Virus record (IMG/VR): IMGVR_UViG_3300045988_140636
Source: a virus
Length of the DNA stretch: 64,000 nt
Direction: 5' to 3' (one strand)
Below are positions 4,137-43,280 of this stretch, piece after piece; within the stretch, counting starts at the first letter, position 1; each line of letters opens with the position of its first letter. The translations under genes were made by a program, and so were the position numbers. The notes beneath the pieces were generated by a model. That model was not told where the DNA came from, did not search any database, and saw only the letters and a program-made list of their open reading frames with translations.

Positions 4137-4142
4137 ATCTTA

Positions 4143-21306: not shown

Positions 21307-21575
21307 TATTCAAATATTATAATATGTCCATACCCTATTGAATAAATAATAGACTTAACAACTGCTCCAGCTTCTTTCAGGAACTCTCCTTCTATTATCA
21401 TGGGGCCTCCTGGCGGAGAAATAAATCTCTTAGTCTCTTCTACATACCCAGATTTCACATTTATATAATCATGCTTTAATACATAGGTTTTGGAATCTTT
21501 TCCACTCATATTCTTGAGTTTTCTTAGACAATTATCTATTCCTCCCCTAGAATTAAGTTTTATTATGTTATCCAT
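21306..21575 (-). CDS. hypothetical protein
   Basis: ORF in operon spacing. Confidence 0.35.
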   Translation of the reverse strand: MDNIIKLNSRGGIDNCLRKLKNMSGKDSKTYVLKHDYINVKSGYVEETKRFISPPGGPMIIEGEFLKEAGAVVKSIIYSIGYGHIIIFE

Positions 21576-22063
21576 TATTTCATATATGCTATCAAGTTTT
21601 CGAAATCAATGACATACTTATATTTTTCAAAGAATCTACTTCCTAAGATTCCATGAAATTGTACACCGGATTCTTGCTTAATCACTTTAAACGCTGCATC
21701 TAAGTCAGCTATATTAAACTCTTCTTCAAATCTTTTTCTCTTATATGTTACTGTAATTCTGCAAGAGCCAGTACTAACTTCATTCCCTTCAAATCCTATC
21801 ACACTAGATTCTCCATCAATGATTTCATGGTCTAGAAGAGGTAAAACAGAACTGTTTATATAGGATAAATTACTACCTGTGTCCAATAGAAAATTTAATT
21901 TCTTTCTATTACAGTTAAATGTTGCTACTGGTAGCTCTGTTAAATCCATAGATTCTTTAAAGGAGATTTTACTATTGTTTCTATTCCTTACTTCCATGAT
22001 GGTATTAGCAATAAAAGCTACTGCTAATACCATTAATATCACGATTATTATATCTAATATCAT
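21575..22063 (-). CDS. membrane-anchored retropepsin-like (clan AA) aspartic peptidase
   Basis: N-terminal hydrophobic helix ILDIIIVILMVLAVAFIA; FLLDTGSNLSYI (DTG active site) and later HGILGSRFF flap-like motif. Confidence 0.5.
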   Translation of the reverse strand: MILDIIIVILMVLAVAFIANTIMEVRNRNNSKISFKESMDLTELPVATFNCNRKKLNFLLDTGSNLSYINSSVLPLLDHEIIDGESSVIGFEGNEVSTGSCRITVTYKRKRFEEEFNIADLDAAFKVIKQESGVQFHGILGSRFFEKYKYVIDFENLIAYMK

Positions 22064-22084
22064 GCCTCATAATTTTTTTAGTTA

Positions 22085-22624
22085 TTATCTAAGTCCAGTG
22101 GAACCAAGACCTCCTCTTTGTTTTCCTTCCAGATTCTCTACCTCAACCAATTTTATTCCAGAACTTAATAGCCATTTTAACTTCTGCCATGTAGAAGCAT
22201 GTTGACTAAGTCCGATTTCAAATTGGCAGATTCTATCCCCCTTTTTAATAGAGGTTTCTCTCATTGGAGAACAAATATAGTTCCATTCATCTTCTTCTCC
22301 TTTATAAATATTATCTATGAAACCCATACCATTAGGAATGAACAATCCCATCTTTCTAGGTATGCTGCTTCTTGACAGTATTTTGGCTGTAAATCCTTTT
22401 GGTAATTCCATAGCCACTCCAAGTGGTACATAGTAAGTTTCCATTGTTACATTCCTGTATCCAACTTCATTTCCATCTTGATCTGCTCTTTTCTTGAGAG
22501 TGCCTGATTGAGGAGCAGGAATGTCCATGTCAATAGCACTTTTCAAATCTATACAGTCTCCAAGTTTACTAATTTCGGGCATGCAGCCATCTACTAATAC
22601 TTTCACTTTTATCTTAAGCTTCAT
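22085..22624 (-). CDS. dut: dUTP pyrophosphatase (trimeric dUTPase)
   Basis: dUTPase motifs: GDCIDL, LSRSSI, GFIDNIYKG, RGGLGSTGL. Confidence 0.8.
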   Translation of the reverse strand: MKLKIKVKVLVDGCMPEISKLGDCIDLKSAIDMDIPAPQSGTLKKRADQDGNEVGYRNVTMETYYVPLGVAMELPKGFTAKILSRSSIPRKMGLFIPNGMGFIDNIYKGEEDEWNYICSPMRETSIKKGDRICQFEIGLSQHASTWQKLKWLLSSGIKLVEVENLEGKQRGGLGSTGLR

Positions 22625-22647
22625 ATTTATTCTATTTCTTTTTATTA

Positions 22648-22863
22648 TTAAAACAAATAATTGTAATCTACTATATGAGGGGGAGTCAAAGCCCTCTTCT
22701 TTTTAAACATAATTTTACTTCCTACCATAAAAGAGATACTATCTGCGTTATATCCTATAGCTTTAAGGTACTCTTCTACATTATCTATTTTATTAGCCAC
22801 CTCCTCTGGTATTTTTATACAATCCACGGTGGAACTTTGATAATCCAATACTACAGTTTCCAT
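22648..22863 (-). CDS. hypothetical small protein
   Basis: ORF between dUTPase and RNR. Confidence 0.3.
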   Translation of the reverse strand: METVVLDYQSSTVDCIKIPEEVANKIDNVEEYLKAIGYNADSISFMVGSKIMFKKKRALTPPHIVDYNYLF

Positions 22864-22880
22864 AATTAAATAGTTATTAG

Positions 22881-25800
22881 TTAATCACATCTTGAATAAC
22901 CACAATTCATGCAGTGTGTACAACCTCCATCTCTAACTAGGTTTCCACCGCACTCTGGGCACACTTCTCCTTTAATCTCTGAAGATTTAATATACTTGGC
23001 TAATATTCTACACATGGCAGAACTGAAGGAAGTTATATTATCATTTACTTTTTTGGCTGTTTTAGTAATAAATTCAATGCTAACTCCATGTCTTAATAGC
23101 ATTGATGAATATAAAGTAGCGGCTTTCTCCTCTATATTAGTATTAGCCAACTGTAAATCAGATAATTGAATAAACTTACTATCAAAGCTGTAGTGCATTT
23201 TACCTTTCTTGATAATCTTTCCTTTATGGGGAGGAATATCAATAGGTCTTAGAGGTCTGAATGCAAAAATTTCATAAGGTTTCCCTTCTAACAATCCTAC
23301 AAGAACGATAAATTGTTCCCCTTTCACTTTGACTTGATGATAGTCAGCTTCAAGCTCTTTAGGTCTCTTAGGAGCTTGTCTATTACTTATAGTACTAGGC
23401 TTTTCTATCTTATTCAAGACTCCTTCCCTACAACCATCTCTATATATAGTCTGTCCTTTATTTCCTGTTCTCCATGCTTCTATATAAATATCAGCAATCT
23501 CCTCTTCAGTAATCTCTTTTGGAAGATTTATTGTAGAACTAATACTATGAGTGATATATTTCTGTACAATACCTTGCAACTTGATTCTTTGCTTCCAATC
23601 TATCTCTGGTGCTGTAGATCCATAATAAGGACTCTTCTTAAAAGCCTCTTTAAGATATTCCATATCCTGTAACTTCTCCAAATATTCAGGATCATTGAAG
23701 TTCCCTTTGAATGTAGAATAGCATAACCATTTGGCTAAATTAGGATGAACCACTGTGAATAAAGTGTATTTTTCTCCTTTTACATCAGTATAATCTACTT
23801 TATCATTAGGAGACATACATTTTCTCTTTCTTCTATAGAATGGTAAAAAGACAGGCTCTATTCCAGAGGAACATTGAGCCATAATACTCACAGTGCCTGT
23901 GGGTGCAACAGTCGACCAACTTATATTTCTTCGGCCTAAGCATTTCATTTTAATAGCCTCTGTGTGGAAATTATCACTAAGGAATTCATACCATTTGTTC
24001 TTGCCACGATGGGGTATAACAGTATATTCCTTATGTGAATCCCAAGCTGGAAATGCTCCTCTCTCAATAGTCATATCTATTTGAGAGTCCAATTGACCCT
24101 TAAATATAATCCTCATCAGATCTTCAATTTTTTGAATACCTTCATCAGAATCATATTTCAGCCCTAACATAGCTATGGCATCTGCCAATCCAGTAAAACC
24201 AAGACCAGCTCTTCTACCTCTTCTTGTAGTCTCTCTTATTCTACTCCATAGATTAAATTCTACAAAGTCAGATTCACCGTTAGCTATATTTATAATTCTG
24301 TCTATGGCTTCCAATTCAAGATCTACAAGATCATCTGCTAATCTCATAGCTTCGTAGGAATGCTTGTAGAGTAAGTCTTTATCAATATAAGATTCTTCCG
24401 TAAATGGATCTTTTATATAGCTTGTCAGATTAATATGTATCAATCGGCAACTATCAAAGGGACCCATTGGTATTTCTCCACAGTTATGAGCAACCATATT
24501 ATTAGCAATTAAACAATGTGTTCCAGGTACTTGTATATCATATACATCTACTTGTTCACCTTCTTCAATGCTAACTATACAATTATCCCACTGATTTCTA
24601 CACTTAGTAGCTAAGTAATCAGGTAATGGCTCTGTATTTTTCCAAGCTGGGGTTTTTTCACTTGGGACAAACCTCCCATCTTCTCCTCTGACCTGGTGAT
24701 TTTGTGGATTCTGTTCTAATGCTGTAAGTCTAGCATGTTTAGAGTGATCAATAGATTGAAGGTTATTAATTACATTATTAAATGGATTTGCATCTAAGTG
24801 ATGAATATCCTTATCAATCTGCTGACCATATACTCCCTCATAAACAAGTCTATGCTCCATTACATAGTCCCTATTTCCCTCGGTAGTAAGTTTCACTCCG
24901 ACATATCTCCTTCCTCTTCTGCTCCTTAGGATATGAGCAATTCTATCTCCTATCTTAAGATTTTGAGCTTCTATAAATCCCACTCCTTGAACGAACATTT
25001 TATGGTTAGGCGTAACCATTATAGAAGATCCATTTCTTAGGACAATCTTTAATGTTTTAGCATTATCTCTTGTCTTAAAAGCTGCTGTAGAGGGAACTAT
25101 ACAAATATGCCCTTCCTCATTCATGCTATATACATAAGTAGGTTCAGTTATATCAGCAATTCTCTTTCTGCCTTCTACAGTTTCAATGAGAGTATCAGGA
25201 TGAAAGCAAGGATTTGTCCCGATCATCTTAAATTCTTCATAAACACCATCAGGAGCATAATCATGCATAGCATTTTCAAACATTATTCCAGGTTCAGCTG
25301 TATTATATGCACAATGCATTAGAGTATTCCATAACTTTCTTGCTTTAATCTTTTTTAAACAAACTCTTTTTTCAGCAGGAAGGGCTTCCCCAAAGCAGAG
25401 TAATTTATCATATTCCATCTCTTCTAATTGAGAAGGATCATAATTGGCATGTACAGGCCATCTAAGCAAATAATCTTCATCATTGATTACTGCTCTCATG
25501 AACTCATCTGTGACTTTCACACTTATATTGGCTCCAGTTACTTTGGTAAGATCTTGCTTTTTAGTAATGAACTCTTCAATGTCAGGGTGATTTATACTAA
25601 TACTTAACATTAAAGCTCCACGTCTACCATTCTGTGCTACCTCATTGGTGATATCAGAACATACATCCATAAAGCTTGCTGCACCAGTAGATGATTTAGC
25701 TGCATTATTCACTGCAGCTCCTCTTGGTCTTAGATTAGATAAATCATAACCTACTCCTCCTCTCCTTTTCATGAGCTGGACTTGCTGGCTTCTGGTATTC

Positions 25801-26165
25801 ATTATACTAGAGTAACTATCTACTGGAGAACCTATTACAAAACAGTTAGATAAAGAGACCAATTTTCCTGTACCTAATCCGGACATAACAGAACCTCCAG
25901 GGATTATATATTTAAAGTTCTTGAACAGTTCATATATATCCTCCTCTTTTAGCTCTTTCCTTTCATTCCCATAAGGGGATAATACTAACCTGCCTTTTTG
26001 ACTCATAGGAGTATTATTCGCATATTCTCTCTCTATTCTACCAAATTCCTTAGCGAGTCTCCTATGCATATCATCAGGAGTAGTTTCTCCTTCCATAGCG
26101 TACTTGTTTTTCCATGTGGAAGCCGCTAATTCATCTCCATTAAAATAATTCAATAAATCATTCAT
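22881..26165 (-). CDS. ribonucleotide reductase catalytic subunit (monomeric class II-like; C-terminal CxxC...CxxC tail) interrupted by an intein
   Basis: LSNCFV first-Cys region and NP/CGEI active-site loop split by the intein. C-terminal CPECGG...CTHCMNCG. No beta-subunit ORF seen nearby. Confidence 0.7.
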   Translation of the reverse strand: MNDLLNYFNGDELAASTWKNKYAMEGETTPDDMHRRLAKEFGRIEREYANNTPMSQKGRLVLSPYGNERKELKEEDIYELFKNFKYIIPGGSVMSGLGTGKLVSLSNCFVIGSPVDSYSSIMNTRSQQVQLMKRRGGVGYDLSNLRPRGAAVNNAAKSSTGAASFMDVCSDITNEVAQNGRRGALMLSISINHPDIEEFITKKQDLTKVTGANISVKVTDEFMRAVINDEDYLLRWPVHANYDPSQLEEMEYDKLLCFGEALPAEKRVCLKKIKARKLWNTLMHCAYNTAEPGIMFENAMHDYAPDGVYEEFKMIGTNPCFHPDTLIETVEGRKRIADITEPTYVYSMNEEGHICIVPSTAAFKTRDNAKTLKIVLRNGSSIMVTPNHKMFVQGVGFIEAQNLKIGDRIAHILRSRRGRRYVGVKLTTEGNRDYVMEHRLVYEGVYGQQIDKDIHHLDANPFNNVINNLQSIDHSKHARLTALEQNPQNHQVRGEDGRFVPSEKTPAWKNTEPLPDYLATKCRNQWDNCIVSIEEGEQVDVYDIQVPGTHCLIANNMVAHNCGEIPMGPFDSCRLIHINLTSYIKDPFTEESYIDKDLLYKHSYEAMRLADDLVDLELEAIDRIINIANGESDFVEFNLWSRIRETTRRGRRAGLGFTGLADAIAMLGLKYDSDEGIQKIEDLMRIIFKGQLDSQIDMTIERGAFPAWDSHKEYTVIPHRGKNKWYEFLSDNFHTEAIKMKCLGRRNISWSTVAPTGTVSIMAQCSSGIEPVFLPFYRRKRKCMSPNDKVDYTDVKGEKYTLFTVVHPNLAKWLCYSTFKGNFNDPEYLEKLQDMEYLKEAFKKSPYYGSTAPEIDWKQRIKLQGIVQKYITHSISSTINLPKEITEEEIADIYIEAWRTGNKGQTIYRDGCREGVLNKIEKPSTISNRQAPKRPKELEADYHQVKVKGEQFIVLVGLLEGKPYEIFAFRPLRPIDIPPHKGKIIKKGKMHYSFDSKFIQLSDLQLANTNIEEKAATLYSSMLLRHGVSIEFITKTAKKVNDNITSFSSAMCRILAKYIKSSEIKGEVCPECGGNLVRDGGCTHCMNCGYSRCD
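24483..25208 (-). mobile_element. intein (242 aa) with HNH endonuclease domain inserted at the RNR NPC|GE active site
   Basis: Starts CFHPDTLIETVEG (block A, Cys1), ends NMVAHN followed by +1 Cys (CGEI); internal HNH motif HRLV...DIHHLDANPFNNVINNL...H. Confidence 0.75.
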
Positions 26166-27198
26166 TATTTAACCAATTTGTTATTACGTTAATTTCTGAA
26201 ATATTTGCAGGATATTCCACATTATGAGTGGAATAATAATGAAGTTCTGATACTATCTTACTCCAATGCCTGCATAAATACTGTTTATTTCTTCCGTAGA
26301 CATGGTCTTCGAACTTACTGGTATCATCATAGATCCATACAAGAGGCTTCTTATTATATCTATTGATTACTATAAATCTGTAATCCAATAGTTTATAATT
26401 TCTATAGAACTCATCTTTGTCCAAGGTCTGTCTTATAAGATACCAATAAAGCTGAGCTTGAATCCAGTAATTCCAGTCTATAAAAGACTTATAGAATTCC
26501 CATTCACTCTTCCCAGATGTTTTTAAATCACAAGGAATGATATATTTCTCCTTATGATTAACTATGAGTAGGTCAGCCATACATCTTAGCGGAATTTTAT
26601 TCCATTCCCCTTTGAACTTCAATTGATAAAATCTTTCTACCTCAGGATTGAAAGGATTATTACATTCAAAGTACCACTTAGTCATTCTATGCGTCTTTAA
26701 TACTTCCACACATTCACATGCACTAATATAATCTTTGGTAGATACCAGTGTTTTACCTTTAGATAAAAATAATAGAGAGTAATAATCTCTACACTCTTCC
26801 TTTATCTTTCTTATTCTATAGGAAGCATACTTAGGATTAGAATAATATCCACAAGATTCTCCTATGTCTGATATAATATTGTCTGGTATTTGCTCTATGC
26901 CTTTGCAGGATTCATGATATGTATTAAATAACATTTTAGCTATCTGGGCTAGGGAGTCACTAATATCGGGAAGTTCAGCTACTTCATATCTTTTATCGAA
27001 TTCCTTTTGACCATCTGTAAGAAGAGTATCTACCATACTTCCAAATAACAAAGAAGGAGTCTCTATTTTATCATATAGATTGCCTAAACCATTAAATCCT
27101 TCTCTATTAAATCTGGCTATAACAGAATAAGAATAAGCTGGGTCAGATCTATACTCCTCTTCATTCACTTTCCAAGAAATATCATACAAAGATTTCAT
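26158..27198 (-). CDS. PD-(D/E)xK superfamily nuclease (RecB/YqaJ-like exonuclease)
   Basis: AYSYSVIARF N-terminal signature; MADLLIV ... IIPCDLKTSG (D...D/ExK). Confidence 0.45.
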   Translation of the reverse strand: MKSLYDISWKVNEEEYRSDPAYSYSVIARFNREGFNGLGNLYDKIETPSLLFGSMVDTLLTDGQKEFDKRYEVAELPDISDSLAQIAKMLFNTYHESCKGIEQIPDNIISDIGESCGYYSNPKYASYRIRKIKEECRDYYSLLFLSKGKTLVSTKDYISACECVEVLKTHRMTKWYFECNNPFNPEVERFYQLKFKGEWNKIPLRCMADLLIVNHKEKYIIPCDLKTSGKSEWEFYKSFIDWNYWIQAQLYWYLIRQTLDKDEFYRNYKLLDYRFIVINRYNKKPLVWIYDDTSKFEDHVYGRNKQYLCRHWSKIVSELHYYSTHNVEYPANISEINVITNWLNNE

Positions 27199-27201
27199 AC
27201 C

Positions 27202-27474
27202 TTAATACTCTAAATCACTAGGAAAATCAAGTTGCATTAAGTACACATCTACCTCAGACTTTAACACATTAAGGCTGTCTAGATCAATCTTTAAATATTC
27301 TGGCCTAGGATTTTCTTTCCTTCTGTCCATTCGTATCTTATTTATTGCAGAATCTACTAGCTCCTTCAACGAGTAAAAGTCTCTATTATCTAGGAATTTA
27401 TAGCCTAAATGAATATCCTTTTCAGGAAGTAAACCAATTAATTTCCTAATTCTATCTACAGGTGTGCTGCTCAT
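27202..27474 (-). CDS. hypothetical protein
   Basis: ORF in operon spacing. Confidence 0.3.
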   Translation of the reverse strand: MSSTPVDRIRKLIGLLPEKDIHLGYKFLDNRDFYSLKELVDSAINKIRMDRRKENPRPEYLKIDLDSLNVLKSEVDVYLMQLDFPSDLEY

Positions 27475-27964
27475 AATTTTTTATAATTTCTATTGCTTGA
27501 AGAAGTTGTTTTTTTGTATACACCTCAAAATATATAGATCTTTCACCGCTCTTTGTGTAGAGCTGGTCCAAGTAATACAAAAACATTTTCTTCTTGATAT
27601 AAAATACATCATTTTCTATCCCCTTAGCCTCAATATACACATTGAGATTGTTATATTTAAAGTAAAAGTCTGGAGTATATCTGATTCCTACTATCTTTCC
27701 AGTCTTCTGTATTAATATCCTTGAAGGACAATTGTTTATTCCTTCTTCAAGTCTCTTGGCTCTTTGCCTATCTGTCTCCATATCATAATATGGAGTCATT
27801 GGTTGAAATCCATCCCACAAGGTAAAGGTCTTAGGTTCATATTGAGGATCAAATCCATGTTGTAAAAGGATATTATAAAATCTCTTCTCTATAACACTCT
27901 TAAAGGTAATGCTACTATCCTTGCAGACAGTAGCATTCCTTATCTTTTTATTTGCAGTTTTCAT
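27452..27964 (-). CDS. T7 endonuclease I-like Holliday junction resolvase
   Basis: YTPDFYF...VYIEAKG (compare T7 gp3 YTPDFLL...FIEVKG) and N-terminal S.IEKRFYNILLQHGFDPQYE resembling T7 endo I SGLEDKVSKQLESKGIKFEYE. Confidence 0.55.
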   Translation of the reverse strand: MKTANKKIRNATVCKDSSITFKSVIEKRFYNILLQHGFDPQYEPKTFTLWDGFQPMTPYYDMETDRQRAKRLEEGINNCPSRILIQKTGKIVGIRYTPDFYFKYNNLNVYIEAKGIENDVFYIKKKMFLYYLDQLYTKSGERSIYFEVYTKKQLLQAIEIIKNYEQHTCR

Positions 27965-28539
27965 TTAAAGTCAAAACATTCTTGCGTTAGCAAATTTTGA
28001 AACTCTTCCAATAATCCAAGAGCAATTTGGGCTTCTCTGGCAGATCTGAAAGCAGCGAAGTTTTTGTAATCCTTGATACATTCTTTTTTCAGGTTATAAA
28101 CTTTCATACTAATTATATCTGCCATGTATATGTTAGGGCTATTACTAATATGATCTTCATAATTGGCATCTAGATCGATAGCTATTTCCCTTAAGAACAT
28201 AGTATATAGTGAAGCTGGACAAATATTAAGTAAGGTAAAAAGGAATTCTATAGAATTCTCTTCATTTAGACTGGATTTTTGGCATATTTTCCTAAGATAA
28301 TACTCTACATCTTTTTCAGATTTAAGGGGTCCTTCTTCTAGATCTTCTCTCTCTACTATTAAACCTTTTTTAATTAGTTTACTTATGCTATTAGGAAGTA
28401 CAATAAATTCTTGAATTACAGAAAAGTAATCTCCCCTACGTACTCTTCTTATAACGTCACCCATTTTTACTTCTTCACCTGCTTTAGTGTAATACCTTTT
28501 CTTATTCATATTTTTCTGTTTAATGTCAATATTCTTCAT
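27961..28539 (-). CDS. hypothetical protein
   Basis: ORF in operon spacing. Confidence 0.35.
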   Translation of the reverse strand: MKNIDIKQKNMNKKRYYTKAGEEVKMGDVIRRVRRGDYFSVIQEFIVLPNSISKLIKKGLIVEREDLEEGPLKSEKDVEYYLRKICQKSSLNEENSIEFLFTLLNICPASLYTMFLREIAIDLDANYEDHISNSPNIYMADIISMKVYNLKKECIKDYKNFAAFRSAREAQIALGLLEEFQNLLTQECFDFK

Positions 28540-29017
28540 ACCATTTTATGGAATACCCATAAATATCTCTTAATTTTTTATCTATTTCATCAAATAGATA
28601 ATGAGGCATCTTTGTCCCACTCCTTGCAAAATATGCAGGGTGTTCAATCTTCAAAACATGATTGAAATTCTTATTGATATACGGATCAAATGTTCCAGCT
28701 TGTTTACCGAATAATACATATACAATAGAACACAAATTTTCCGAAAGATTCTTTAATAATTTAGATATGAATGGTCTCCATAACATAACATGGGAGCCTA
28801 TTTTATTCATCTCCACAGTAAGAGCAGAGTTAATCATTAATATACCCTGCTTAGCCCAGTTCTCTAAAGTTTGGTCAAAGATAATGCTATCATGTGGAAT
28901 TTCCAAATTTATCACTGCTTCTTTTAATATTTTTAGAGAAGGCGACAAATCTTCTTCTGAAACTTCTTTTCTATTTCCAAACAGTACTCCAGTAGCTACT
29001 CCCTTTTGTGGATAAGG
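28526..29017 (-). CDS. ung: uracil-DNA glycosylase family 1, exon 2 (from PYPQKG...)
   Basis: Continues the E. coli Ung alignment after GQD (PYHGPGQAHG versus PYPQKGVATG); GILMINSALTV; C-terminal HPAYFARSG (HPSPLS-like); omega-G at 29018. Confidence 0.8.
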   Translation of the reverse strand, partial: PYPQKGVATGVLFGNRKEVSEEDLSPSLKILKEAVINLEIPHDSIIFDQTLENWAKQGILMINSALTVEMNKIGSHVMLWRPFISKLLKNLSENLCSIVYVLFGKQAGTFDPYINKNFNHVLKIEHPAYFARSGTKMPHYLFDEIDKKLRDIYGYSIKWYEEY

Positions 29018-29947
29018 CAATTTGTTACCCCAAAGGCTCTTTATCCTTTGGTTCTATATATTACTATATAGTTCGGACTATATCTTCATTGTTTCCAATG
29101 CAGGGCACTCGTGTCAGGTTTATTATTTGAGCTATTCACCTGTTAGTCTCTGAACCTTCTACATACTTTTATGCTCTTCTGTAGCTTGGCTGCTGATTGA
29201 CTCATTAAGTTGTTCCAGCAATTCACCCTGTTTATCCAGAACCCTTCTTTTACTATAAGTAATTAGTTTATATTGCATGGATGGAATAATATAATCTTTA
29301 ATTAGTTCTACAAACTTAGGAAAATCCTTAGCTTGTAGATACATACTATTATCATGTTTGCCTACAGTAAAATGTAAGTCAAATTTATTTAATAATATGT
29401 TAGCTAACAAAAGCTGTTCTTCAAGAGTAAATGAACAAGTAGATAAGGTACATGAATTTTTAGTTACATAACCATCATCCATATACCATATAGCCAAACC
29501 TAAAGCATCTATATCTTTTACAAATTCTTCAAAGATTCTTTTATGTCCATTAGAGTCATAATATTTTAATCTTATATTTGTAAAAATAGGATGTAATCTA
29601 GATTTAAATCTATATCCAACTAATTCATGTAAATATCTTTTATTATTTACATGATATTCAACTATAGGAGATACTAAGTTATATTTATTTAGTATCTCCC
29701 ATTTATACTCAAGATATTCTTTTTGTTTTTCAGAGTGCGCTATACTAAGACACATATTTTTAGCTGTTTTTCCTACTGAACAAAAACATCCATCACCTAA
29801 CAAACTTCCTATAAGAAGTTGTCTTAGATCATTTTCTACTTTAATTTCCTTGTAATTCTTCATACCATTAAGAATTTGGCACAAAGATAAGGTATTTGAC
29901 CTAATATTGCAATATTCTAGTTAAATTATTTATAGATTATTACCAAA
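29018..29947 (-). mobile_element. group I intron (930 nt) in the UDG gene with LAGLIDADG homing endonuclease
   Basis: Minus-strand Q (CAATCAGCAGCCAA, 29184-29197), R (GGTTCAGAGACT, 29145-29156) and S (AAGATATAGTCC, 29073-29084); P9 CUAUAUAGUAAUAUAUAG; ends GGUAACAAAUUG|; exon 1 ends in U (GAT). Confidence 0.85.
29159..29884 (-). CDS. LAGLIDADG homing endonuclease (double-motif), intron-encoded
   Basis: IGSLLGDGCFC and LAIWYMDDGY motifs; paralogous to 18545..19243. Confidence 0.85.
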   Translation of the reverse strand: MCQILNGMKNYKEIKVENDLRQLLIGSLLGDGCFCSVGKTAKNMCLSIAHSEKQKEYLEYKWEILNKYNLVSPIVEYHVNNKRYLHELVGYRFKSRLHPIFTNIRLKYYDSNGHKRIFEEFVKDIDALGLAIWYMDDGYVTKNSCTLSTCSFTLEEQLLLANILLNKFDLHFTVGKHDNSMYLQAKDFPKFVELIKDYIIPSMQYKLITYSKRRVLDKQGELLEQLNESISSQATEEHKSM

Positions 29948-30133
29948 ATCCTGCCCTAGAAACACTACCTTCAAATCCTCGAATGGACATAACTTAAAAG
30001 CCCTAAACACATCAGTTTGCTTAGGGCATACAGGCTTTATCATATACTCCTTAGATAACATATTCATTACATGATTAAGCTCTACTTTATCAATGACCTT
30101 CATCCAACCTCCAAAATATTCTTCTGTCGTCAT
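29948..30133 (-). CDS. ung: uracil-DNA glycosylase family 1, exon 1 (ends ...VVFLGQD)
   Basis: Matches the Ung N-terminus up to the catalytic GQD (E. coli VKVVILGQDPYH); the ORF-track tail FGNNL* is intron sequence. Confidence 0.8.
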
Positions 30134-30840
30134 TCAAGTGCTAGTAAATCGTCTATATTATTTTCTAAAAAATTATTTAGAGATTCATTTATATCTTCGC
30201 CTTGAGGTGGAGGAATAGTCTTTATGAACTCTTCAGCATTATCTATTTTAACTTCCACTTGGTTTAGGTATCTATAATCTACCAATTCCGAAAGGAATGC
30301 AGGAATAACCCTTTTAATTATATGTTTCTCTAATATACCTGGTCTATCTAATAAGAATAGCGTCGGAGACACATGTACTACTATCTTTCTAGTAGGAGTT
30401 AACCTGTGATCCTTCAATACGCAACAGGAGTTAACCATTAGTAACATATTCATGCATCTATCTAATATTATTCCTCTACATCCATAGTACACCTGATCTT
30501 TACAAGACACTTTACTCAAGGAGAATGAATCAAATAAGGCTCTAATTAATGAGTTACTTCCTAATGCAGTATTCTCTTTTGAGTTTAAGAACACAGGAGT
30601 AACTATTCTACATTTTCTTGACAACAGCTCATCGAACTCACTCCCAGATAGTTTAGAGAATTGGCTCCTCAGTATAGTGGGAATCTCTATATTCATATCC
30701 TCTCTTAGAGTAGCTTCAACAAGAATTCTATACGGGTTTGTATTGTTACTTCCATATAGTGAAGGGACAGATACTGAGGGTCTACTAATTGATATTGCTT
30801 TGTATAAGTCCTCTATATATTTTTCTGAAAAAATCATCAT
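30130..30840 (-). CDS. hypothetical protein (236 aa) in the E1/JAB cluster
   Basis: Start/stop overlap with E1-like gene; several Cys (GCRGIILDRCMNMLLMVNSCC); no family recognised. Confidence 0.4.
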   Translation of the reverse strand: MMIFSEKYIEDLYKAISISRPSVSVPSLYGSNNTNPYRILVEATLREDMNIEIPTILRSQFSKLSGSEFDELLSRKCRIVTPVFLNSKENTALGSNSLIRALFDSFSLSKVSCKDQVYYGCRGIILDRCMNMLLMVNSCCVLKDHRLTPTRKIVVHVSPTLFLLDRPGILEKHIIKRVIPAFLSELVDYRYLNQVEVKIDNAEEFIKTIPPPQGEDINESLNNFLENNIDDLLALE

Positions 30841-31787
30841 GATATAGTTTTAAAATACATAGTTTCTGCATTATATTCAGTATAGAACGGAAGGTCCCTG
30901 TCTATAAGTGGATTACATTTATTTGCTATAAAATTGACAAACAAATTAACTATAACAGATCCAATCATATTAGCCATAAAAGTAGTTTGTTTATAACTGC
31001 ATACAGTAGGATCGGCCTCAAAGTCTGAGAACAAATAAGGCTCATATCTTCGTATATTATCCATATCGTCTCCTTTTATACAGAACACTTGAAATTCTTC
31101 TGCTGCCAATCTGCCATCTATAAACAGACATTCTTCTCGCCTCTCTTTGGGTAATTCTAACACCCTATCAGTCCAATTCTTAAAAGCATCCTTTCTAGCT
31201 TTCATATTATCGAACCCACAAATAGTTATTCCAGTTATAGCTGAAGAGGTATCCAGTTTTTTAGTTAGAGCTGAAACACTATGATAGTCTGAATAATTTT
31301 CTATCATATCTGCTATAGCATCTGCCTTATAAAGACCTATTTGAGACTTACTATATAACTGTCCGGACAAATTAACTGTTTCTACTTTATCTGGGTCATA
31401 TAAAGTTAGTGACCTGACATCCATTCTAGATAACATAAATACTACATAGCTTCCTATCCCTCCTAATCCAGCTACAGTAATATTTTGCTTAAGTATCTTA
31501 TCAAACCAAAGGGCAGAGTTAAATCTAGATGTCCCTTCTTTTATTAATAAGGTCTTAGAATTTTCAGGAATTTTATCTATAACCAAATCCTGATCTATTA
31601 GTGCAGATATTAACATAGAATGTTCTTCTTCATCAAGATAAAATTTACTACCCTCTACAGTAATTTCACTAACAAATTCTCCATCCATAATAACTTGCCT
31701 AATACTGGAAATAGCCTTTCCTTTGATTAACTCTATTAAGTCCCCTACAGCTAGTGATTCATTAGGGCTTTGATCTAATCTTTTCAT
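30837..31787 (-). CDS. ThiF/MoeB-family E1-like adenylyltransferase with about 100-aa N-terminal extension
   Basis: Rossmann VAGLGGIGSYV (GxGxxG), LYDPDKVETVNLSGQLY, and ITICGFDNMKARKDAF (compare MoeB/E1 VLDCTDNFETR). Confidence 0.7.
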   Translation of the reverse strand: MKRLDQSPNESLAVGDLIELIKGKAISSIRQVIMDGEFVSEITVEGSKFYLDEEEHSMLISALIDQDLVIDKIPENSKTLLIKEGTSRFNSALWFDKILKQNITVAGLGGIGSYVVFMLSRMDVRSLTLYDPDKVETVNLSGQLYSKSQIGLYKADAIADMIENYSDYHSVSALTKKLDTSSAITGITICGFDNMKARKDAFKNWTDRVLELPKERREECLFIDGRLAAEEFQVFCIKGDDMDNIRRYEPYLFSDFEADPTVCSYKQTTFMANMIGSVIVNLFVNFIANKCNPLIDRDLPFYTEYNAETMYFKTIS

Positions 31788-31802
31788 ATTATCATTTCTC
31801 CT

Positions 31803-32987
31803 TTAAAAAATATAATCACATAATATTTTAATATATTCTCCTATATATATATTACTATCAAGCTTCTCTAATTCTTCTTTGATTGCAGTAGCACATAATG
31901 TAACTATCTCATCGTCATCCACTCCTTGTTTAACCAAATCCTCATCTATTGTATACCAACATAGGAATTCTATAAATCCTTCAGCCCACTTCTTGAACAT
32001 CTCCAGTCCTTCTTCTCCCTTCCCAAATCTTCTTTCATATATAGGTATCATTCCTGCTACCCAAGATTTTATATTTATTTTACTTTCTCTAGGGATAACC
32101 ACACTTCCTGTTACTAATTGAAGGGCTAAAGACTTTGCCAGACCTTTATCAAAACTATGCTTCTTTGTATCATCTCTAAATTTTAAAGTCTGCTGTCTCT
32201 GACTTAAATCATCTTCTTCCATTAGATTATATGTATCCTTTTGTGTCAATGATTCAAACTTGGAAAAAGGCTTATACGTGTGAAGAGGAGGATCAAATCT
32301 ACTATTTATTTTCTGAATCTTAGACTCCTCTATCTCTTTAAGTCTGGATTCTAACTCTGTATATTCACTACACCCTTCTACTTCTATATCAAGGTAGTAA
32401 TATTCCAATTCCTCAGTATTAGTTCCTTCAAAATTTCGAACTTCCTTGATTTGTGTGTTACCAAAACTAGGATAACAGAAACTTTCCACAATACACTTGT
32501 TAACCAATCTTCTAGTTATGGCTGCTGTATAATTCCCTCTATTATTAACTATTAAGGAAACAAAGTGATTCCTATCCAATCCTTCCTCTTTCAGAGTTCT
32601 TATATCTGTTCCACTGAAGGAGGTATCCATGTTATTATGTGAATGGATTAATCCCATATGACAATCTAACAGCTCAGGGTTGTTCACTACATAACTGCAT
32701 ACATCAGGAGACATATCAAACTCCGTATAAGCAGAACTTCCGATATCCATAACACATATATCTTCACATTTTATGATTAGACTTCTATCTTCAAAGGATC
32801 CCTCAGATGTAAAAAATAGAACTCCGGACCACTCATCTTTCCATACCTTTCTACATATGTATATTATTTTTTCTTCTACTTTCTTCGGTATTATCATTTT
32901 ATAAGTAGTAGAATTCTCGGTCATCTGAATTGTTTGTTTCTCTACTTTTTTCTGACTCGTCTCTAAGACTTGATTTATTCCTTCCAT
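31803..32987 (-). CDS. JAB/MPN (JAMM) metallopeptidase domain protein with about 200-aa C-terminal extension
   Basis: JAMM motif HSHNNMDTSFSGTD (HxHx7Sx2D) with upstream Glu (KDEWSG). Confidence 0.7.
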   Translation of the reverse strand: MEGINQVLETSQKKVEKQTIQMTENSTTYKMIIPKKVEEKIIYICRKVWKDEWSGVLFFTSEGSFEDRSLIIKCEDICVMDIGSSAYTEFDMSPDVCSYVVNNPELLDCHMGLIHSHNNMDTSFSGTDIRTLKEEGLDRNHFVSLIVNNRGNYTAAITRRLVNKCIVESFCYPSFGNTQIKEVRNFEGTNTEELEYYYLDIEVEGCSEYTELESRLKEIEESKIQKINSRFDPPLHTYKPFSKFESLTQKDTYNLMEEDDLSQRQQTLKFRDDTKKHSFDKGLAKSLALQLVTGSVVIPRESKINIKSWVAGMIPIYERRFGKGEEGLEMFKKWAEGFIEFLCWYTIDEDLVKQGVDDDEIVTLCATAIKEELEKLDSNIYIGEYIKILCDYIF

Positions 32988-34212
32988 ATTTACAATTTAC
33001 TAATTTTAATATTCTATTCAGTAAAAAACCTATTATCCCTGGATTTAAGATGGTAGTAATATAATTATTAATAGTATCTCCTTCTACTATATGAACTACT
33101 ACTTCTTTCCCCTTAAATGTGCCCATCACTCCTAGATTAGATTTATCAATCTCTAAAATACCCAGGATATTAGTGATTCTGTAAATAATACCCTTCGATA
33201 CAAATACTTTGGTTAAAATATTTTCTAGAGACTCTTCCTCTTTTCTTATCATTCCTTTTTGATATATATATCTTCCTTTGGTATTAAACCAATTGATAAA
33301 TTCATTACTTACTAGTAGTATAAATTTCGTTATACTCATACCAATAGAATAACCCCCATTTTTGTAATTGAAGATAAGTTTTTTCTGTTCTATGAAATAT
33401 TTAATGAAATCATAAACCATAGGCCTCAAACATGATGCTATATATACCGAATCATTAAGACTGATATGAACTATTTTAGCACTTCTGTTAAAAACTACTT
33501 CCTCTAATCTCCTATAAGGACCTCCACTTAGGGATTCTGTTGCTACATACTTCTCCAATTCTACACAAAACAGTCTCCAAATATCCAAATCATAATGAAA
33601 GTTCAAGGAATTTACTGTATTTCTTATAGGACCGCTTCCCAAACACACTTGAAGAAACTCTTTAAAGTTCTCCCTTGGTATTCCACATACATGGGAATGC
33701 ATATAGTCACAAAAATACTGTGTCATTGTATATTCCCCTCTATTAAAAGAGAAGGATCCTTCCATAGTGCCCCCCATATCTATTGGTACTTTGACATATA
33801 GTTCAGTAATATCTATAAAATGATCATGTTCATTACTAACTCTTACTCTTGGGAAGTATACTATGATGTAAAACTGTATCTCACTCTCTAATTTCGACAT
33901 TATCTTATCCAGAAGATCCCTAATGCTAGGGATACTACTTAGAATTTCATCAGGTATGTCCTTTATTAATTGTATATTAGACATTTTTTCCTTTAACCTG
34001 GATGACTCCTCAGTGCCCAGTGCTGTTCCAATACTTATATTATCATAAGTTTTCGAGAATTCCTCTTCTATTTCTGAAATGGTAGGAACATTTTGTAAGT
34101 CTACCTTATCTTCTCCAAAGAAATCTTCGAATATTTCCAGTACACTTGTTACATTTCGTAAATGTTCCTTACATATTGCTTCTATAACTTTCCTAGTTTT
34201 TTCCCCTATCAT
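32899..34212 (-). CDS. hypothetical protein (437 aa) in the E1/JAB cluster
   Basis: Large ORF overlapping the JAB gene start; no family recognised. Confidence 0.4.
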   Translation of the reverse strand: MIGEKTRKVIEAICKEHLRNVTSVLEIFEDFFGEDKVDLQNVPTISEIEEEFSKTYDNISIGTALGTEESSRLKEKMSNIQLIKDIPDEILSSIPSIRDLLDKIMSKLESEIQFYIIVYFPRVRVSNEHDHFIDITELYVKVPIDMGGTMEGSFSFNRGEYTMTQYFCDYMHSHVCGIPRENFKEFLQVCLGSGPIRNTVNSLNFHYDLDIWRLFCVELEKYVATESLSGGPYRRLEEVVFNRSAKIVHISLNDSVYIASCLRPMVYDFIKYFIEQKKLIFNYKNGGYSIGMSITKFILLVSNEFINWFNTKGRYIYQKGMIRKEEESLENILTKVFVSKGIIYRITNILGILEIDKSNLGVMGTFKGKEVVVHIVEGDTINNYITTILNPGIIGFLLNRILKLVNCKYGRNKSSLRDESEKSRETNNSDDREFYYL

Positions 34213-34221
34213 ATCATATAA

Positions 34222-34256
34222 TAAAAAAAAAGCAGGTAAGAAAAATCTTACCTGCT
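34222..34256 (-). terminator. intrinsic terminator (GCAGGTAAG/CTTACCTGC hairpin followed by a U10 run on the minus strand)
   Basis: 9-bp perfect stem 34232-34240/34247-34255; A-run on plus equals T-run on minus. Confidence 0.55.
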
Positions 34257-34272
34257 AGTAAACAAACCCTTA

Positions 34273-34902
34273 TCAAACAAAATCAAACATTTCATCAATC
34301 TCATCATCTGAGTAGGTGGAGAGCCCTTTTTTTGGCTTTGCAGTGTTAGAGGAGTACTTACCACTAAGAATATTAGTAGCCTCCTCTCTTTCCAAAATTT
34401 CAGCATCTACCAAAGAGTCTAACAGACATTTAATAGAGGTTCTCAATGAAGTTACTTCTTTCTCTAAATCACCTTTGGGAGCTTCTTCCTTAGATGTAGA
34501 ACCGTGATGCTCTTCAATCAGTTTCAGAAGATCTTCAGATTTACACAGAGTATAATTTTTCCCATACTTTCTAATACAGGCATCTTCCAAGTGATATTCT
34601 TTTATACCATTGTAAATCTCTTTTCTATTTACAGCTCCGGATTTAATCTTTTTATTAGGAGAAGTCAACATGAACACAAGCTCATTAGTAGTCTGTCCTT
34701 TATAAAGGACATCATGAGGAAGAATAGAACCATCATCGATTAATTCAGTTTTTGAAAGTCCTTCATAGAATGTCATGTCCTGATAATTTACGCCTGTTCT
34801 ATCCAGATCTCTCTTCAGTTCCCCTAATGTAGTAGCACTGGACATAATTACTTTTTTCTCTTGTGTTCTCGTAGATACGATTGTGATTTTTCTTGCTTCC
34901 AT
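34273..34902 (-). CDS. ubiquitin-like (beta-grasp) N-terminal domain protein, 209 aa, acidic C-terminus
   Basis: Residues 5-80 follow the ubiquitin pattern (KITIVSTRTQEKKVIMSSATTLGELKRDL...GVNYQDMTFYEGLSKTELIDDGSILPHDVL...NELVFML versus Ub QIFVKTLTGKTITLEV...LEDGRTLSDYNI...LHLVL); no C-terminal GG. Confidence 0.4.
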   Translation of the reverse strand: MEARKITIVSTRTQEKKVIMSSATTLGELKRDLDRTGVNYQDMTFYEGLSKTELIDDGSILPHDVLYKGQTTNELVFMLTSPNKKIKSGAVNRKEIYNGIKEYHLEDACIRKYGKNYTLCKSEDLLKLIEEHHGSTSKEEAPKGDLEKEVTSLRTSIKCLLDSLVDAEILEREEATNILSGKYSSNTAKPKKGLSTYSDDEIDEMFDFV

Positions 34903-34940
34903 AATTAATTTTATTAAATGTTTTTTATCTTTTTTTTCTT

Positions 34941-35942
34941 TTATTTTTCAAATAATTCTTTCATTATTTTGATGAAGTCATTCTTGTCTTGAAGAGAATG
35001 ATAAAGGCCTGATATATCATTATCTCCTTCGAATTTAGGTAATATCAAGTTAGTAAATCCTGTGGATTTAGCCAGTTTCTCCCCATCTATAAGTCCTGCT
35101 TCATCATTATCAAATAATATGAATATCCTTTTATACCTTCTTTTAAGCTCATTAATAGCTGTGTTGCTTATTCTATAGCCTTCTCCCTGAACAGCTAAGG
35201 ATGGAATTCCGGTATTAGCCCATAAGCAAAGAGCGTCTTTTACAGAAGAACATATGCATACTGAATCTCCATATTCAGGTATTTTTGTCCACAAACTAAT
35301 TACAGACAAGTCATGTTTGTTACTCCATTTATAACCATCTTTGTTAAATGGTTGGTAAATCTTCAAAGTAACCTTTCCTTCTTTACGTTCTACATACGCA
35401 TAGGCATATTTATCTGCTGCATACACCCTTCTCACTCCATCCTTTATCACGATCTTATGAGATATAGGATAAACATCAGCATATTTTAACCATTCCAGAC
35501 TCACTCCAAAGGATTCCCAGTACTCTATATCATGTTTCCTCCACTCTCTTATTTTGCATTGTAAGTCAATTGACTTGTTATAACTTTTAGTAGTAATTAT
35601 ACTGCAGGAATTATAAGGTCTTATATTAGAATTATTAGAGAATCTAAGCATATCCTTATCTATTCTTTCTAAAACTTCTACATATGATATTCCCCACATT
35701 TTAGACAGAAGGTCAAATAATCCTCCTCTGTCTCCTGTAGATAAATCAACATAAAATATTCTCTTTCCATCTCTAGAGTATAACCCAAAAGAAGGTCTTT
35801 TATCTTCTCTGAGAGGAGAATTTATTATACAAGGTATTTCAGTGATACCCAAATAAAAGTATAGAATACTAGATTCTGTTGTTTTCTTCAATATGTCCTC
35901 TAAGTTAATTGAAGATCTTCCAGAAATAAACGGCATATTCAC
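34941..35942 (-). CDS. DnaG-like DNA primase (degenerate zinc-binding N-terminus plus TOPRIM)
   Basis: SPLREDKRPSFGLY (compare CPFHxEKTPSF) and TOPRIM CICSSVKDALCLW ... ILFDNDEAG. Confidence 0.6.
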   Translation of the reverse strand: MNMPFISGRSSINLEDILKKTTESSILYFYLGITEIPCIINSPLREDKRPSFGLYSRDGKRIFYVDLSTGDRGGLFDLLSKMWGISYVEVLERIDKDMLRFSNNSNIRPYNSCSIITTKSYNKSIDLQCKIREWRKHDIEYWESFGVSLEWLKYADVYPISHKIVIKDGVRRVYAADKYAYAYVERKEGKVTLKIYQPFNKDGYKWSNKHDLSVISLWTKIPEYGDSVCICSSVKDALCLWANTGIPSLAVQGEGYRISNTAINELKRRYKRIFILFDNDEAGLIDGEKLAKSTGFTNLILPKFEGDNDISGLYHSLQDKNDFIKIMKELFEK

Positions 35943-35961
35943 ATTATTTTTCTATTTATTA

Positions 35962-36888
35962 TTATTTATCAAACCACGGAGAGGGTTGCATTGGCATGTC
36001 AAAAGGAGATCCTGTCTGGGTCAAGTCATTATTGAAGTCAGTCGGTTCTATTGTGTACTCCTTTAAATCACAGACTTCAAATTCTGTAGTAGGATAAGCT
36101 CCAGCGGCTTTTCTGTTTTGAAGTTCTTCATCCAGTTTGCTATAATCTGCCACACTATTCTTCAAGAACTTTTGAACATAAACAGCTTGATACTGTTTGC
36201 CATCTTCAGTAGTTCTTACTCCGAATAGACCTTTGACTCTGTTCTTAGGCTGCAAAGAAATTGCTTCTTTCAATTCTGAATAATCTCCTTTGAAATAATT
36301 TTCAATCTTATCCAATCTAGCTTCCGCATCAGCTTTATTAGGAAGTTCTACCACTTCTCCATTGGATTTTCTATAGGATTTATTAGGAATATTTAAATAT
36401 GCCTTCAAGAATCCTGTAAGATCCTCTTCCCCTATATAAGCCGGCCTAAAATCAGCAGGTTCGAACCAATTAAGGTTGGATGGAACAGTGCCAGATTTTG
36501 CATTTTCTATAGGCAGCCAAGTAGTTTCTCCATATTTATTTATTACTTGAACTTTGCTTCCATCTCTGTTATATCTAACCTCCCTGGCAATGAAGAAAGA
36601 TATTTTAGTTCTCATATCAATTCCATTGCATTTCTCAGGGTCTGTCTGTACAATAAAATCTATTCTTACTTGAGGAACAGTATGTTTATCACCTTCTGGA
36701 CCAACTTCAACTTCACTTAAATATGAAGGGCCATCATTAATAGTGGTATTATACAATTTTTCTAGTGTTTCCTTATCAGGATTAACAGCTAACACACCTA
36801 CTGAGCCTACTCCAATATACTTTTTAACTGCACTACCTTCTGTAGATTCACTACCTGTGGCAAAAGCCATAAAGATTTTGTTCGTCAT
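35962..36888 (-). CDS. hypothetical protein (possible ssDNA-binding protein by position)
   Basis: Between primase and helicase-associated genes; no motif recognised. Confidence 0.3.
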   Translation of the reverse strand: MTNKIFMAFATGSESTEGSAVKKYIGVGSVGVLAVNPDKETLEKLYNTTINDGPSYLSEVEVGPEGDKHTVPQVRIDFIVQTDPEKCNGIDMRTKISFFIAREVRYNRDGSKVQVINKYGETTWLPIENAKSGTVPSNLNWFEPADFRPAYIGEEDLTGFLKAYLNIPNKSYRKSNGEVVELPNKADAEARLDKIENYFKGDYSELKEAISLQPKNRVKGLFGVRTTEDGKQYQAVYVQKFLKNSVADYSKLDEELQNRKAAGAYPTTEFEVCDLKEYTIEPTDFNNDLTQTGSPFDMPMQPSPWFDK

Positions 36889-36940
36889 ACTTAATATTTT
36901 TTAATATACTTAATAATAAATATTGTTTACTTGATATTTC

Positions 36941-37327: not shown

Positions 37328-37328
37328 G

Positions 37329-41704: not shown

Positions 41705-41705
41705 A

Positions 41706-43220: not shown

Positions 43221-43230
43221 TGTTTATCTT

Positions 43231-43265: not shown

Positions 43266-43280
43266 CTTATATATTTATTT

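Follow-up and report, generated by a model that had tools for sequence, protein, structure and literature searches.

The uracil-DNA glycosylase (UDG) gene of a gut crAss-like phage is very probably interrupted by a mobile, self-splicing group I intron that carries the gene of a LAGLIDADG homing endonuclease. The phage (IMG/VR record IMGVR_UViG_3300045988_140636, of which a stretch of 64,000 nucleotides, referred to here as the window, was analysed) belongs to the family Steigviridae, and its DNA is ~88% identical to that of cr128_1. The evidence comprises the anatomy of the element, its splice junction, the covariation of its RNA, its presence or absence at the same site in related phages, and a signature of horizontal spread. 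From these data, we infer both the splicing of the intron and the cleavage of DNA by the endonuclease. All the features described below are encoded on the minus strand.

A UDG gene divided into two exons

Exon 1 (30133..29948) consists of 62 codons, running from an ATG at 30133, which shares bases with the stop codon of the upstream gene (ATGA), to a C-terminal LGQD and a last base U (29948). The open reading frame (ORF) that contains it (30133..29930) reads M...VVFLGQD and then FGNNL before a stop codon, that is, it resembles Ung as far as GQD and is non-Ung thereafter, as described in the original prediction. Exon 2 (29017..28526) consists of 163 codons plus the stop codon, opens with PYPQKG, and holds N125 and the motif HPAYFA, which includes H188. 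The corresponding ORF (29020..28526) reads (TTG)PYPQKGVATG...EHPAYFARSG...WYEEY, and bears out the predicted resumption of the gene at PYPQKGVATG and the HPS-like motif near the C terminus, the His of which aligns with that of Ung. The TTG at 29020 takes in the terminal G of the intron and is an artefact of the way in which the ORF list was built, the true start of exon 2 being 29017.

The junction between 29948 and 29017 (GAT/CCT) leaves no ambiguity, as shifting even a single base from one side to the other is impossible. The spliced codons are CAG GAU/CCU UAU, in the context GGGCAGGAU/CCUUAUCCA, and the base preceding the 5' splice site is U (29948) while the final base of the intron is G (29018), just as had been predicted for both positions. 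The predicted junction also coincides with the break in the alignments to uninterrupted homologues: the megablast match to cr128_1 begins exactly at 29017, and BLAST and tblastn alignments break between residues 62 and 63 in all relatives. Precise removal of the intron restores the reading frame of the host gene. The joined exons encode a UDG of 225 amino acids, colinear with uninterrupted UDGs of the same length, in agreement with the proposal of a gene split between GQD and PY with a 225-aa spliced product.

The Pfam UDG model matches the joined exons with an E value of 1e-11 and exon 2 alone with 7e-7, while exon 1 alone gives no match; the joined exons score above the threshold of the UDG superfamily (45.6 vs 24.3). 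The NCBIfam ung models also match the joined protein (E 4e-43), with scores that fall below the equivalog cut-offs (147.8 vs 162 for NF003592 and 135.2 vs 185.75 for TIGR00628), and therefore the protein is filed as a family-1-like member of the UDG superfamily and not as an Ung equivalog. Given these scores, it appears to be a divergent UDG, the activity of which is assumed. One record annotates the protein as 'UDG-F1-like'. The solved structures of the E. coli and Coxiella Ung proteins match the joined protein with E values of 1e-23 to 1e-25, and residues D62, Y64, F75, N125, and H188 align with Ung. As in the family 1 enzymes E. coli Ung and human UNG, the GQDPY water-activating loop, the Phe, the Asn, and the C-terminal His are aligned. 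Unlike them, the phage protein exhibits GQDPYP instead of GQDPYH, and its motif B is HPAYFA instead of HPSPLS, with H188 aligned and the Leu position not conserved. Motif A (GQDPY, with D62 and Y64) exists only once the exons are joined (GQD/PYP).

Joining at the predicted junction leaves the frame open and yields GQD/PYP in all 19 intron-bearing relatives compared. The dN/dS ratio of UDG is 0.07-0.2 in most comparable pairs and 0.38 in one pair, although this purifying selection on the exons could in part be older than the gain of the intron.

Phages with and without the intron

A continuous UDG gene encoding 225 amino acids is found in cr128_1 (CDS L001:2815-3492, 88% identical to the joined exons), in bajarodcaudo virus 1, and in three IMG/VR contigs; the uninterrupted 225-aa homologues are 88% and 71% identical to the joined protein. 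The comparison with intron-less homologues, which had been suggested as a check on the prediction, returned one continuous gene and never two separate ones. The intron is absent from cr128_1 and from contigs L003-L005, and it occupies the identical site of the UDG gene in at least 20 IMG/VR contigs, being widespread and polymorphic in crAss-like phages. In one of these contigs (L019), which is 99.7% identical to cr128_1, the sole difference is a 934-nt insertion at the UDG junction. Identity in the two flanks is 99.66% and 99.72%, and the alignment breaks precisely where the exons end; at the insertion site, the UDG sequence of cr128_1 reads TTTCTAGGGCAGGAT/CCTTATCCCCAGAAAGG.

Between phages with flanking genes that are 52-72% identical, identity within the intron is 86-95%, and this greater conservation of the intron fits homing. 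The endonuclease ORF is intact in most relatives, it has decayed in variants L036, L037, L025, and L035, and variant L032 holds two endonucleases; the decayed and the two-endonuclease variants fit the life cycle of homing endonucleases. In L028-L030, the exons are intact although an A replaces the terminal G, so intact exons do not strictly imply canonical splicing.

When the endonuclease was used to scan 185,579 bacterial and archaeal genomes, only one close match (94%) was obtained, on a 9-kb contig in a metagenome-assembled genome labelled Clostridium, and this contig may be a phage fragment that was binned with it. All other matches are at most 39% identical. Across these genomes, judged by the endonuclease matches, there is no evidence of the intron in cellular ung genes.

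The ribozyme core

The intron (29947..29018) is 930 nt long and ends in a terminal G (omega-G, 29018). It matches the Rfam model RF00028 with 80.9 bits (gathering score 50, E 5e-19; core at 29300..29054), and this match, along with the covarying structure, upholds its assignment to group I. The Q, R, and S elements and the LAGLIDADG ORF that had been ascribed to the 930 nt were all located within these limits. The R element is UUCAGAGACUA (29154..29144) and the S element AAGAUAUAGUCC (29086..29075), and the two halves of P4 (UGCUGG/UCAGCA) are read here as the classical P and Q elements.

The core (29030..29230), delineated with the Rfam alignment and the covariation count, is made up of P3 (29230..29224/29107..29101), P4 (29220..29215/29196..29191), P5 (29210..29207/29203..29200), P6 (29189..29188/29156..29155), P6a (29184..29180/29163..29159), P7 (29148..29144/29080..29076), P7.1 (29142..29138/29119..29115), P8 (29100..29096/29091..29087, with a GAAA loop), P9 (29071..29065/29060..29054, with a GUAA loop), and P9.1 (29051..29045/29036..29030). 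P3 follows the guide sequence after just 6 nt, which leaves no space for a P2. The first two hairpins proposed by Rfam (29300..29250), which lie within the endonuclease ORF, were taken as forced by the model.

Among 16 distinct relatives, 98.6% of the pair cells are paired, and 26 of the 63 pairs show changes on both sides. When the pairing was slid, 26-40% of the cells remained paired, and none of 500 shuffles reached the observed value. As P4, P7, and P1 scarcely vary, if at all, they provide no information on covariation. Readings as an intein or a group II intron were set aside, since the endonuclease ORF is cut off from the exon frames by stop codons and the RNA fits the group I model.

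The guide sequence and a P1 helix across the endonuclease gene

The internal guide sequence (AAGG-GUUCUG, 29246..29237) is located ~700 nt downstream of the 5' splice site. P1 is formed by the last six bases of exon 1 (CAGGAU, 29953..29948) and GUUCUG (29242..29237), with a U.G pair at the splice site. This helix is paired in all 16 distinct sequences (100% of cells), each of which retains the U.G pair, and the U/C variation of the guide opposite G produces G.U or G-C pairs. P10 is formed by AAGG (29246..29243) and the start of exon 2 (CCUU, 29017..29014), with 96.9% of cells paired, and the pattern A[AG][AG]GGU[UC]CUG is found in 19 of 19 relatives. Since the guide pairs with the end of exon 1 from this distance, the endonuclease gene lies within the P1 loop. 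The need for a pairing that spans ~700 nt counts against the intron model. Three candidate P1 pairings closer to the intron's 5' end (AAUCU at ~29937, GGUC at ~29901, and AUCUUUGU at 29888..29881) were rejected, either for want of the U.G pair or for poor conservation (for instance, GGAC in L027 and L031).

A 12-bp long-range helix probably closes the long P1 loop. Its putative 5' strand, CUAUAAAUAAUU (29924..29935), is complementary, with one A-C mismatch, to AAUUACUUAUAG (29253..29264), which lies within the endonuclease reading frame. Compensating differences among relatives are seen by inspection. The duplex energy computed for the window alone (-5.6) is no better than that of shuffled sequences (-6.1 +/- 2.0), so that the helix is backed only by the differences among relatives.

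The endonuclease gene and its candidate promoter

The homing endonuclease gene (29863..29159) encodes 234 amino acids from an ATG at 29863. The protein holds two LAGLIDADG motifs (LLIGSLLGDG and LAIWYMDDG), in which both catalytic acidic residues are conserved. The presence of a LAGLIDADG gene inside the intron, already read from the ORF translation, is corroborated by Pfam LAGLIDADG_2 (PF03161; 115.7 bits vs a cut-off of 25, E 2.7e-33) and by matches over ~190 residues to I-SceI (E 3.7e-13) and 6x1j (E 2e-15). The frame overlaps the guide sequence and P3-P6a, its 3' end running through P3-P6 and its UAG stop codon (29161..29159) falling in the 3' strand of P6a, so its translation could disturb the folding of the ribozyme, a point against the intron model.

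The endonuclease is possibly expressed from a promoter of its own. The octamer TATCTTTG (29882..29889), 18 nt upstream of the ATG, is a candidate -7 box of the Bacteroidota type, the consensus of which is TAnnTTTG (quoted in PMC7366714). In 14 of 19 relatives, a TAnnTTTG octamer occupies the same position amid variable neighbouring bases. The motif is not enriched in the whole window (68 found vs 76 expected), so the promoter reading is backed by position and conservation alone. TATCTTTG was also considered as an element of RNA structure, and no covarying partner was found.

Proposed mechanism and alternative explanations

In the proposed mechanism, a single minus-strand pre-mRNA would cover both exons and the intron. 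In this precursor, P1 would arise by the pairing of CAGGAU of exon 1 with GUUCUG of the guide, U.G lying at the splice site, and the endonuclease-bearing loop would probably be closed by the 12-bp helix. The P3-P9.1 core, which contains a P7.1 insertion and in which GNRA loops cap P8 and P9, would then fold, and an external guanosine would attack 3' of U29948. P10 would position the 3' exon, allowing exon 1 to attack past the terminal G at 29018, and ligation would regain the water-activating loop and the full-length UDG. The I-SceI-like protein would in turn cut the GQDPY-coding sequence of intron-less UDG alleles in co-infecting related phages, and repair of the cut allele would copy the intron into it.

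Two alternatives deny that UDG is assembled by splicing. It is very unlikely that the insertion inactivated UDG, the intron being unable to splice now or ever in this context and the ORFs being remnants of a pseudogene. Splicing is indeed something that we infer, and parts of the element have decayed in some relatives; yet all 19 diverged relatives have intact exons that join in frame, with the dN/dS ratios given above, compensatory changes keep all the helices of the ribozyme, and the window retains an intact guide sequence, U, and terminal G. Less credible still is a UDG of two subunits encoded by naturally separate genes, with a free-standing endonuclease gene between them. The in-frame TTG directly before exon 2 in the ORF list would suit it, but this TTG contains the terminal G of the intron, the break lies inside the GQD/PY catalytic loop, what lies between the ORFs is a full group I ribozyme with a guide that base-pairs to the ends of both exons, and both close and distant homologues hold a single continuous gene.

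The third alternative accepts the intron and regards the LAGLIDADG protein chiefly as a maturase needed for the folding of the ribozyme, rather than as an active homing nuclease. LAGLIDADG maturases do exist, I-AniI being an example, and a P1 that must form across ~700 nt might require such help. Moreover, LAGLIDADG proteins of crAss-like phages have been labelled 'endonuclease maturase' by Yutin et al. (PMC7886860). Against this role, L036 and L037 are without most of the ORF and nevertheless conserve the core and the UDG exons, both catalytic acidic residues are retained, and the signature of horizontal spread favours mobility driven by a nuclease. A mainly maturase function is considered improbable, and a mobile intron with a homing endonuclease is the preferred explanation.

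Relation to known introns and significance

Self-splicing introns in phages such as T4 (td, nrdB, and sunY) and in those of Staphylococcus, Clostridium, and Flavobacterium are found in genes of DNA and nucleotide metabolism, in codons for highly conserved active-site residues. The endonuclease genes of these phage introns are mobile and may have their own promoter. A P7.1-type insertion is common to the T4 and other phage introns and to the UDG intron, and its ribozyme core is 71-76% identical to sequences from Clostridium, Proteus, and Flavobacterium phages, with identity bands of up to 90-95% in a tally of Staphylococcus phages. In contrast to these phage introns, which carry GIY-YIG or HNH endonucleases in the loops of P6, P8, or P9, the UDG intron carries an I-SceI-type LAGLIDADG gene in the P1 loop, has no P2, and its ORF traverses the guide sequence and P3-P6a. 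The endonuclease resembles I-SceI, from the omega intron of the yeast mitochondrial LSU rRNA, and 6x1j ('probable intron-encoded endonuclease 1') in being a single-chain, two-motif LAGLIDADG_2 protein, but those enzymes reside in an organellar rRNA gene, and the sequence divergence is high.

CrAss-like phages are already known to harbour group I introns that contain homing-endonuclease genes, among them LAGLIDADG genes (Yutin et al. 2021, PMC7886860). Those introns occur in the same phage order and likewise combine a ribozyme and an endonuclease ORF in conserved core genes; UDG is not named as an intron host in the text of that paper or in the supplement text consulted. Ribozyme cores at annotated crAss genes for 'intron-encoded HNH endonuclease' are 67-73% like this one. 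No intron in any UDG gene was found in the literature searched, the coverage of which is incomplete. The combination of intron and LAGLIDADG gene in crAss-like phages had already been described.

A wider reading, which we hold only tentatively and consider rather unlikely, is that these features define an intron lineage specific to crAss-like phages and unusual in layout, with a P1-loop endonuclease and possibly a host-type (TAnnTTTG) promoter for it. If this were true, an internal endonuclease transcript could not splice, because it would have no 5' exon, and ribosomes on the tail of the endonuclease frame would unfold the ribozyme. Endonuclease production and UDG splicing would be mutually exclusive and would rely on two transcripts, and the relatives that end in A with a UDG under selection would further suggest a relaxed requirement for the terminal G.

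The intron is another mobile intron in active-site codons, and it leaves knowledge of group I introns and of crAss-like phages unchanged. Its practical consequence is for annotation, since in intron-bearing crAss-like genomes UDG appears in two pieces alongside an endonuclease; knowing the precise junction enables annotation of the 225-aa protein, a correction that extends to at least 20 IMG/VR contigs. The endonuclease is a new enzyme of the I-SceI family and a possible tool; it probably recognizes a long target within the sequence that encodes GQDPY. Finally, phages with and without the intron that are 99.7% identical around the site represent a natural test system for homing in gut phages.

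The split uracil-DNA glycosylase gene

By its sequence, the window is from a crAss-like phage, showing 87.8% identity to the uncultured phage cr128_1 (MT774392; Crassvirales, Steigviridae, Mahlunavirus) over 79% of window 20000..44000. Two ORFs on the minus strand correspond to the halves of a uracil-DNA glycosylase (UDG). The first (30133..29930) reads MTTEEYFGGW...VVFLGQD, followed by five codons (FGNNL) and a stop, and the second (29020..28526) reads (TTG)PYPQKGVATG...EHPAYFARSG...WYEEY. The Pfam UDG profile matches the joined exons (1e-11) and exon 2 alone (7e-7), with no match for exon 1 alone. The Ung proteins of E. coli and Coxiella align to the joined protein with E values of 1e-23 to 1e-25, and GQDPY, F75, N125, and H188 are all positioned in this alignment. 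The NCBIfam ung models reach an E value of 4e-43, yet stay under their curated cut-offs, and the second motif of Ung, HPSPLS, is replaced by HPAYFA. The joined protein is classed here as a family-1-like UDG rather than an Ung equivalog.

An uninterrupted UDG of 225 amino acids is encoded by cr128_1 (88% identity to the joined exons) and by bajarodcaudo virus 1 (71%). When the DNA is aligned to these homologues, 930 additional nt fall between GAT and CCT, and neither boundary permits base sliding, which sets the limits on the minus strand at 30133..29948 for exon 1, 29947..29018 for the group I intron (930 nt), and 29017..28526 for exon 2. Position 29017 is also the exact start of the megablast match to cr128_1. 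This is the same junction, 29948|29017, as that of the original prediction. The strongest single evidence for the proposed junction is the comparison of cr128_1 with L019 (IMG/VR contig 3300045988_097391), whose identity is 99.66% across the 2,912 nt that end at the last exon-1 base and 99.72% across the 2,859 nt that begin with the first exon-2 base, L019 having a 934-nt insertion at the UDG exon junction.

When the exons of the 19 intron-bearing relatives are joined at this junction, every one of them yields an uninterrupted frame containing GQD|PYP. The dN/dS of the UDG is 0.07-0.2 in most comparable pairs (0.38 in one). These results speak for continued expression of the split gene.

Structure of the ribozyme

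An Rfam scan of the whole window detects a group I intron at 29300..29054 (minus strand) with 80.9 bits (E 5e-19; gathering score 50). No convincing candidate for the guide sequence was found near the 5' end of the intron. The guide, AAGG|GUUCUG (29246..29237, minus), lies ~700 nt downstream of that end, directly before P3. GUUCUG pairs with the last six bases of exon 1 (CAGGAU) to form P1, with the canonical U.G at the splice site, and AAGG pairs with the CCUU opening exon 2 to form P10. The motif A[AG][AG]GGU[UC]CUG is found in 19 of the 19 relatives examined. Just six bases lie between the guide and P3, so that the intron has no P2. The core consists of P3, P4, P5, P6/P6a, P7, a P7.1 insertion, P8 (GAAA loop), P9 (GUAA loop), and P9.1.

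Across an alignment of 16 distinct relatives, standard pairs occupy 98.6% of pair cells, and two-sided changes occur in 26 of the 63 pairs, including all seven of P9.1 and three or four each in P3, P6a, and P9. In a control with the partners shifted by 1-3 columns, pairing falls to 26-40%. P1, P4, and P7 either do not vary or have one-sided changes only, and are uninformative either way for covariation.

The intron-borne endonuclease gene

Between the UDG exon ORFs lies a third ORF (29884..29159, minus; first ATG at 29863) encoding a LAGLIDADG_2 protein (E 2.7e-33). In the structural model, it is the P1 loop that houses this gene. A 12-bp long-range helix (29935..29924 / 29264..29253, minus), which shows compensating differences among relatives and whose energy in the window sequence alone is at chance level, probably closes the loop. 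Homology to I-SceI stops at about residue 201; the last ~33 codons extend across the guide sequence, P3, P4, P5, and P6, and the UAG stop codon falls within the 3' strand of P6a.

The octamer TATCTTTG (29889..29882, minus), located 18 nt upstream of the endonuclease ATG, fits the Bacteroidota -7 box consensus TAnnTTTG (PMC7366714) and is a candidate promoter of the gene. A TAnnTTTG octamer is retained in the same position in 14 of 19 relatives, with variable adjoining bases; across the whole window the consensus is not enriched (68 found vs 76 expected). The same TATCTTTG precedes both intron-borne endonuclease genes of the window (7783..7790 and 29882..29889, minus), at distances of 28 and 18 nt from the respective ATGs.

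Other probable group I introns in the window

The first of these genes, at 7754..7209 (minus), encodes an I-HmuI-like HNH/NUMOD endonuclease of 181 aa (Pfam HNH_3, 4e-8) and is carried by a putative third group I intron (match 7287..7044, minus; Rfam, 54.4 bits). This match is flanked by two very large ORFs on the same strand, 7906..12258 (1450 aa) and 4143..7064 (973 aa), which look like the parts of a single split gene.

The second match of the Rfam scan (45860..45591, minus) appears to split, in the T-loop, a tmRNA-like gene (44937..46256, minus), an arrangement with a precedent in Clostridium botulinum ssrA. The annotated tmRNA of cr106_1 is matched at 87-88% by window 46256..46109 and 45873..45828. 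The 5' site reads ...GACGAGGGUU(45828)|UAAG... and the 3' site, 871 nt later, ...ACUUCG(44957)|CGAAUCCCUCAUGCUCCACA(44937), so that U precedes the former and G the latter. The joined halves form the T-arm GAGGG-UUCGAAU-CCCUC, and the acceptor strand pairs with the 5' GGGGCAU. ARAGORN calls no tmRNA at 44937..46256, and cr128_1, 97.8% identical across the region, is annotated there only with a hypothetical protein or endonuclease. Antisense to this gene, in the 3' part of the 871-nt insertion, an 83-aa ORF (45362..45613, plus) overlaps the final 23 nt of the Rfam match; it has no Pfam match and looks HNH-like by eye.

Distribution and probable mobility of the UDG intron

A scan of IMG/VR yielded three close relatives whose UDG is uninterrupted. 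In at least 20 contigs, a homologous intron interrupts the gene between the same two codons, the identity of the host UDG falling as low as ~47-55%. The introns of four contigs (L033, L022, L023, and L025) are 86-95% identical to that of the window, their UDG-flanking genes only 52-72%, and their UDG exons 68-77%. In L036 (2951..3533) and L037 (2951..3450) the endonuclease gene is mostly lost; their introns are 583 and 500 nt long, and the ribozyme core and UDG exons are intact, which argues against an obligatory maturase role of the protein. Truncated endonuclease ORFs occur in L025 and L035. L032 holds a 1,685-nt intron (2917..4601) with two LAGLIDADG ORFs, the first in the P1 loop, like that of the window, and the second (~210 aa) inserted in the P7.1 loop. 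Together, this presence and absence, the divergence, and the decayed and double-ORF variants are the stages to be expected of a homing-endonuclease cycle. Among bacterial and archaeal genomes, the sole close relative of the endonuclease is on a contig of 9 kb from a MAG labelled Clostridium; this contig may be a fragment of a phage genome.

In three contigs (L028 3811..3850; L029 and L030 3807..3846), the intron ends in A, not in the terminal G (...AAUUA|CCUUAUCC). These contigs show no change in P7, P10, or the guide sequence, and their UDG exons still join into an intact frame. Between L028 and L029 the pN/pS of the UDG is 0.27, L029 and L030 differ by 3 nonsynonymous and 8 synonymous changes, and the exons are apparently under selection.

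The flanks are strongly mosaic when window 26100..32900 is compared with L017-L020, a sign that these phages often recombine in the region of the UDG gene. For L020, identity to the window is 96-98% upstream of the intron and 86% in exon 2, then 99% in the adjacent gene and 80% in the gene that follows it.

Relation to known introns

UDG is not named as an intron host in the study of crAss-like phage introns by Yutin et al. (2021; PMC7886860) nor in other searchable papers. We infer that the intron is spliced and that its endonuclease cleaves. Its ribozyme core is similar to those of introns in phages of Clostridium, Staphylococcus, Flavobacterium, and Proteus and in other crAss phages. It belongs to an already described kind of element. 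What is distinctive in it is the host gene and site, the endonuclease gene in the P1 loop, the missing P2, and the reading frame that overlaps the core.
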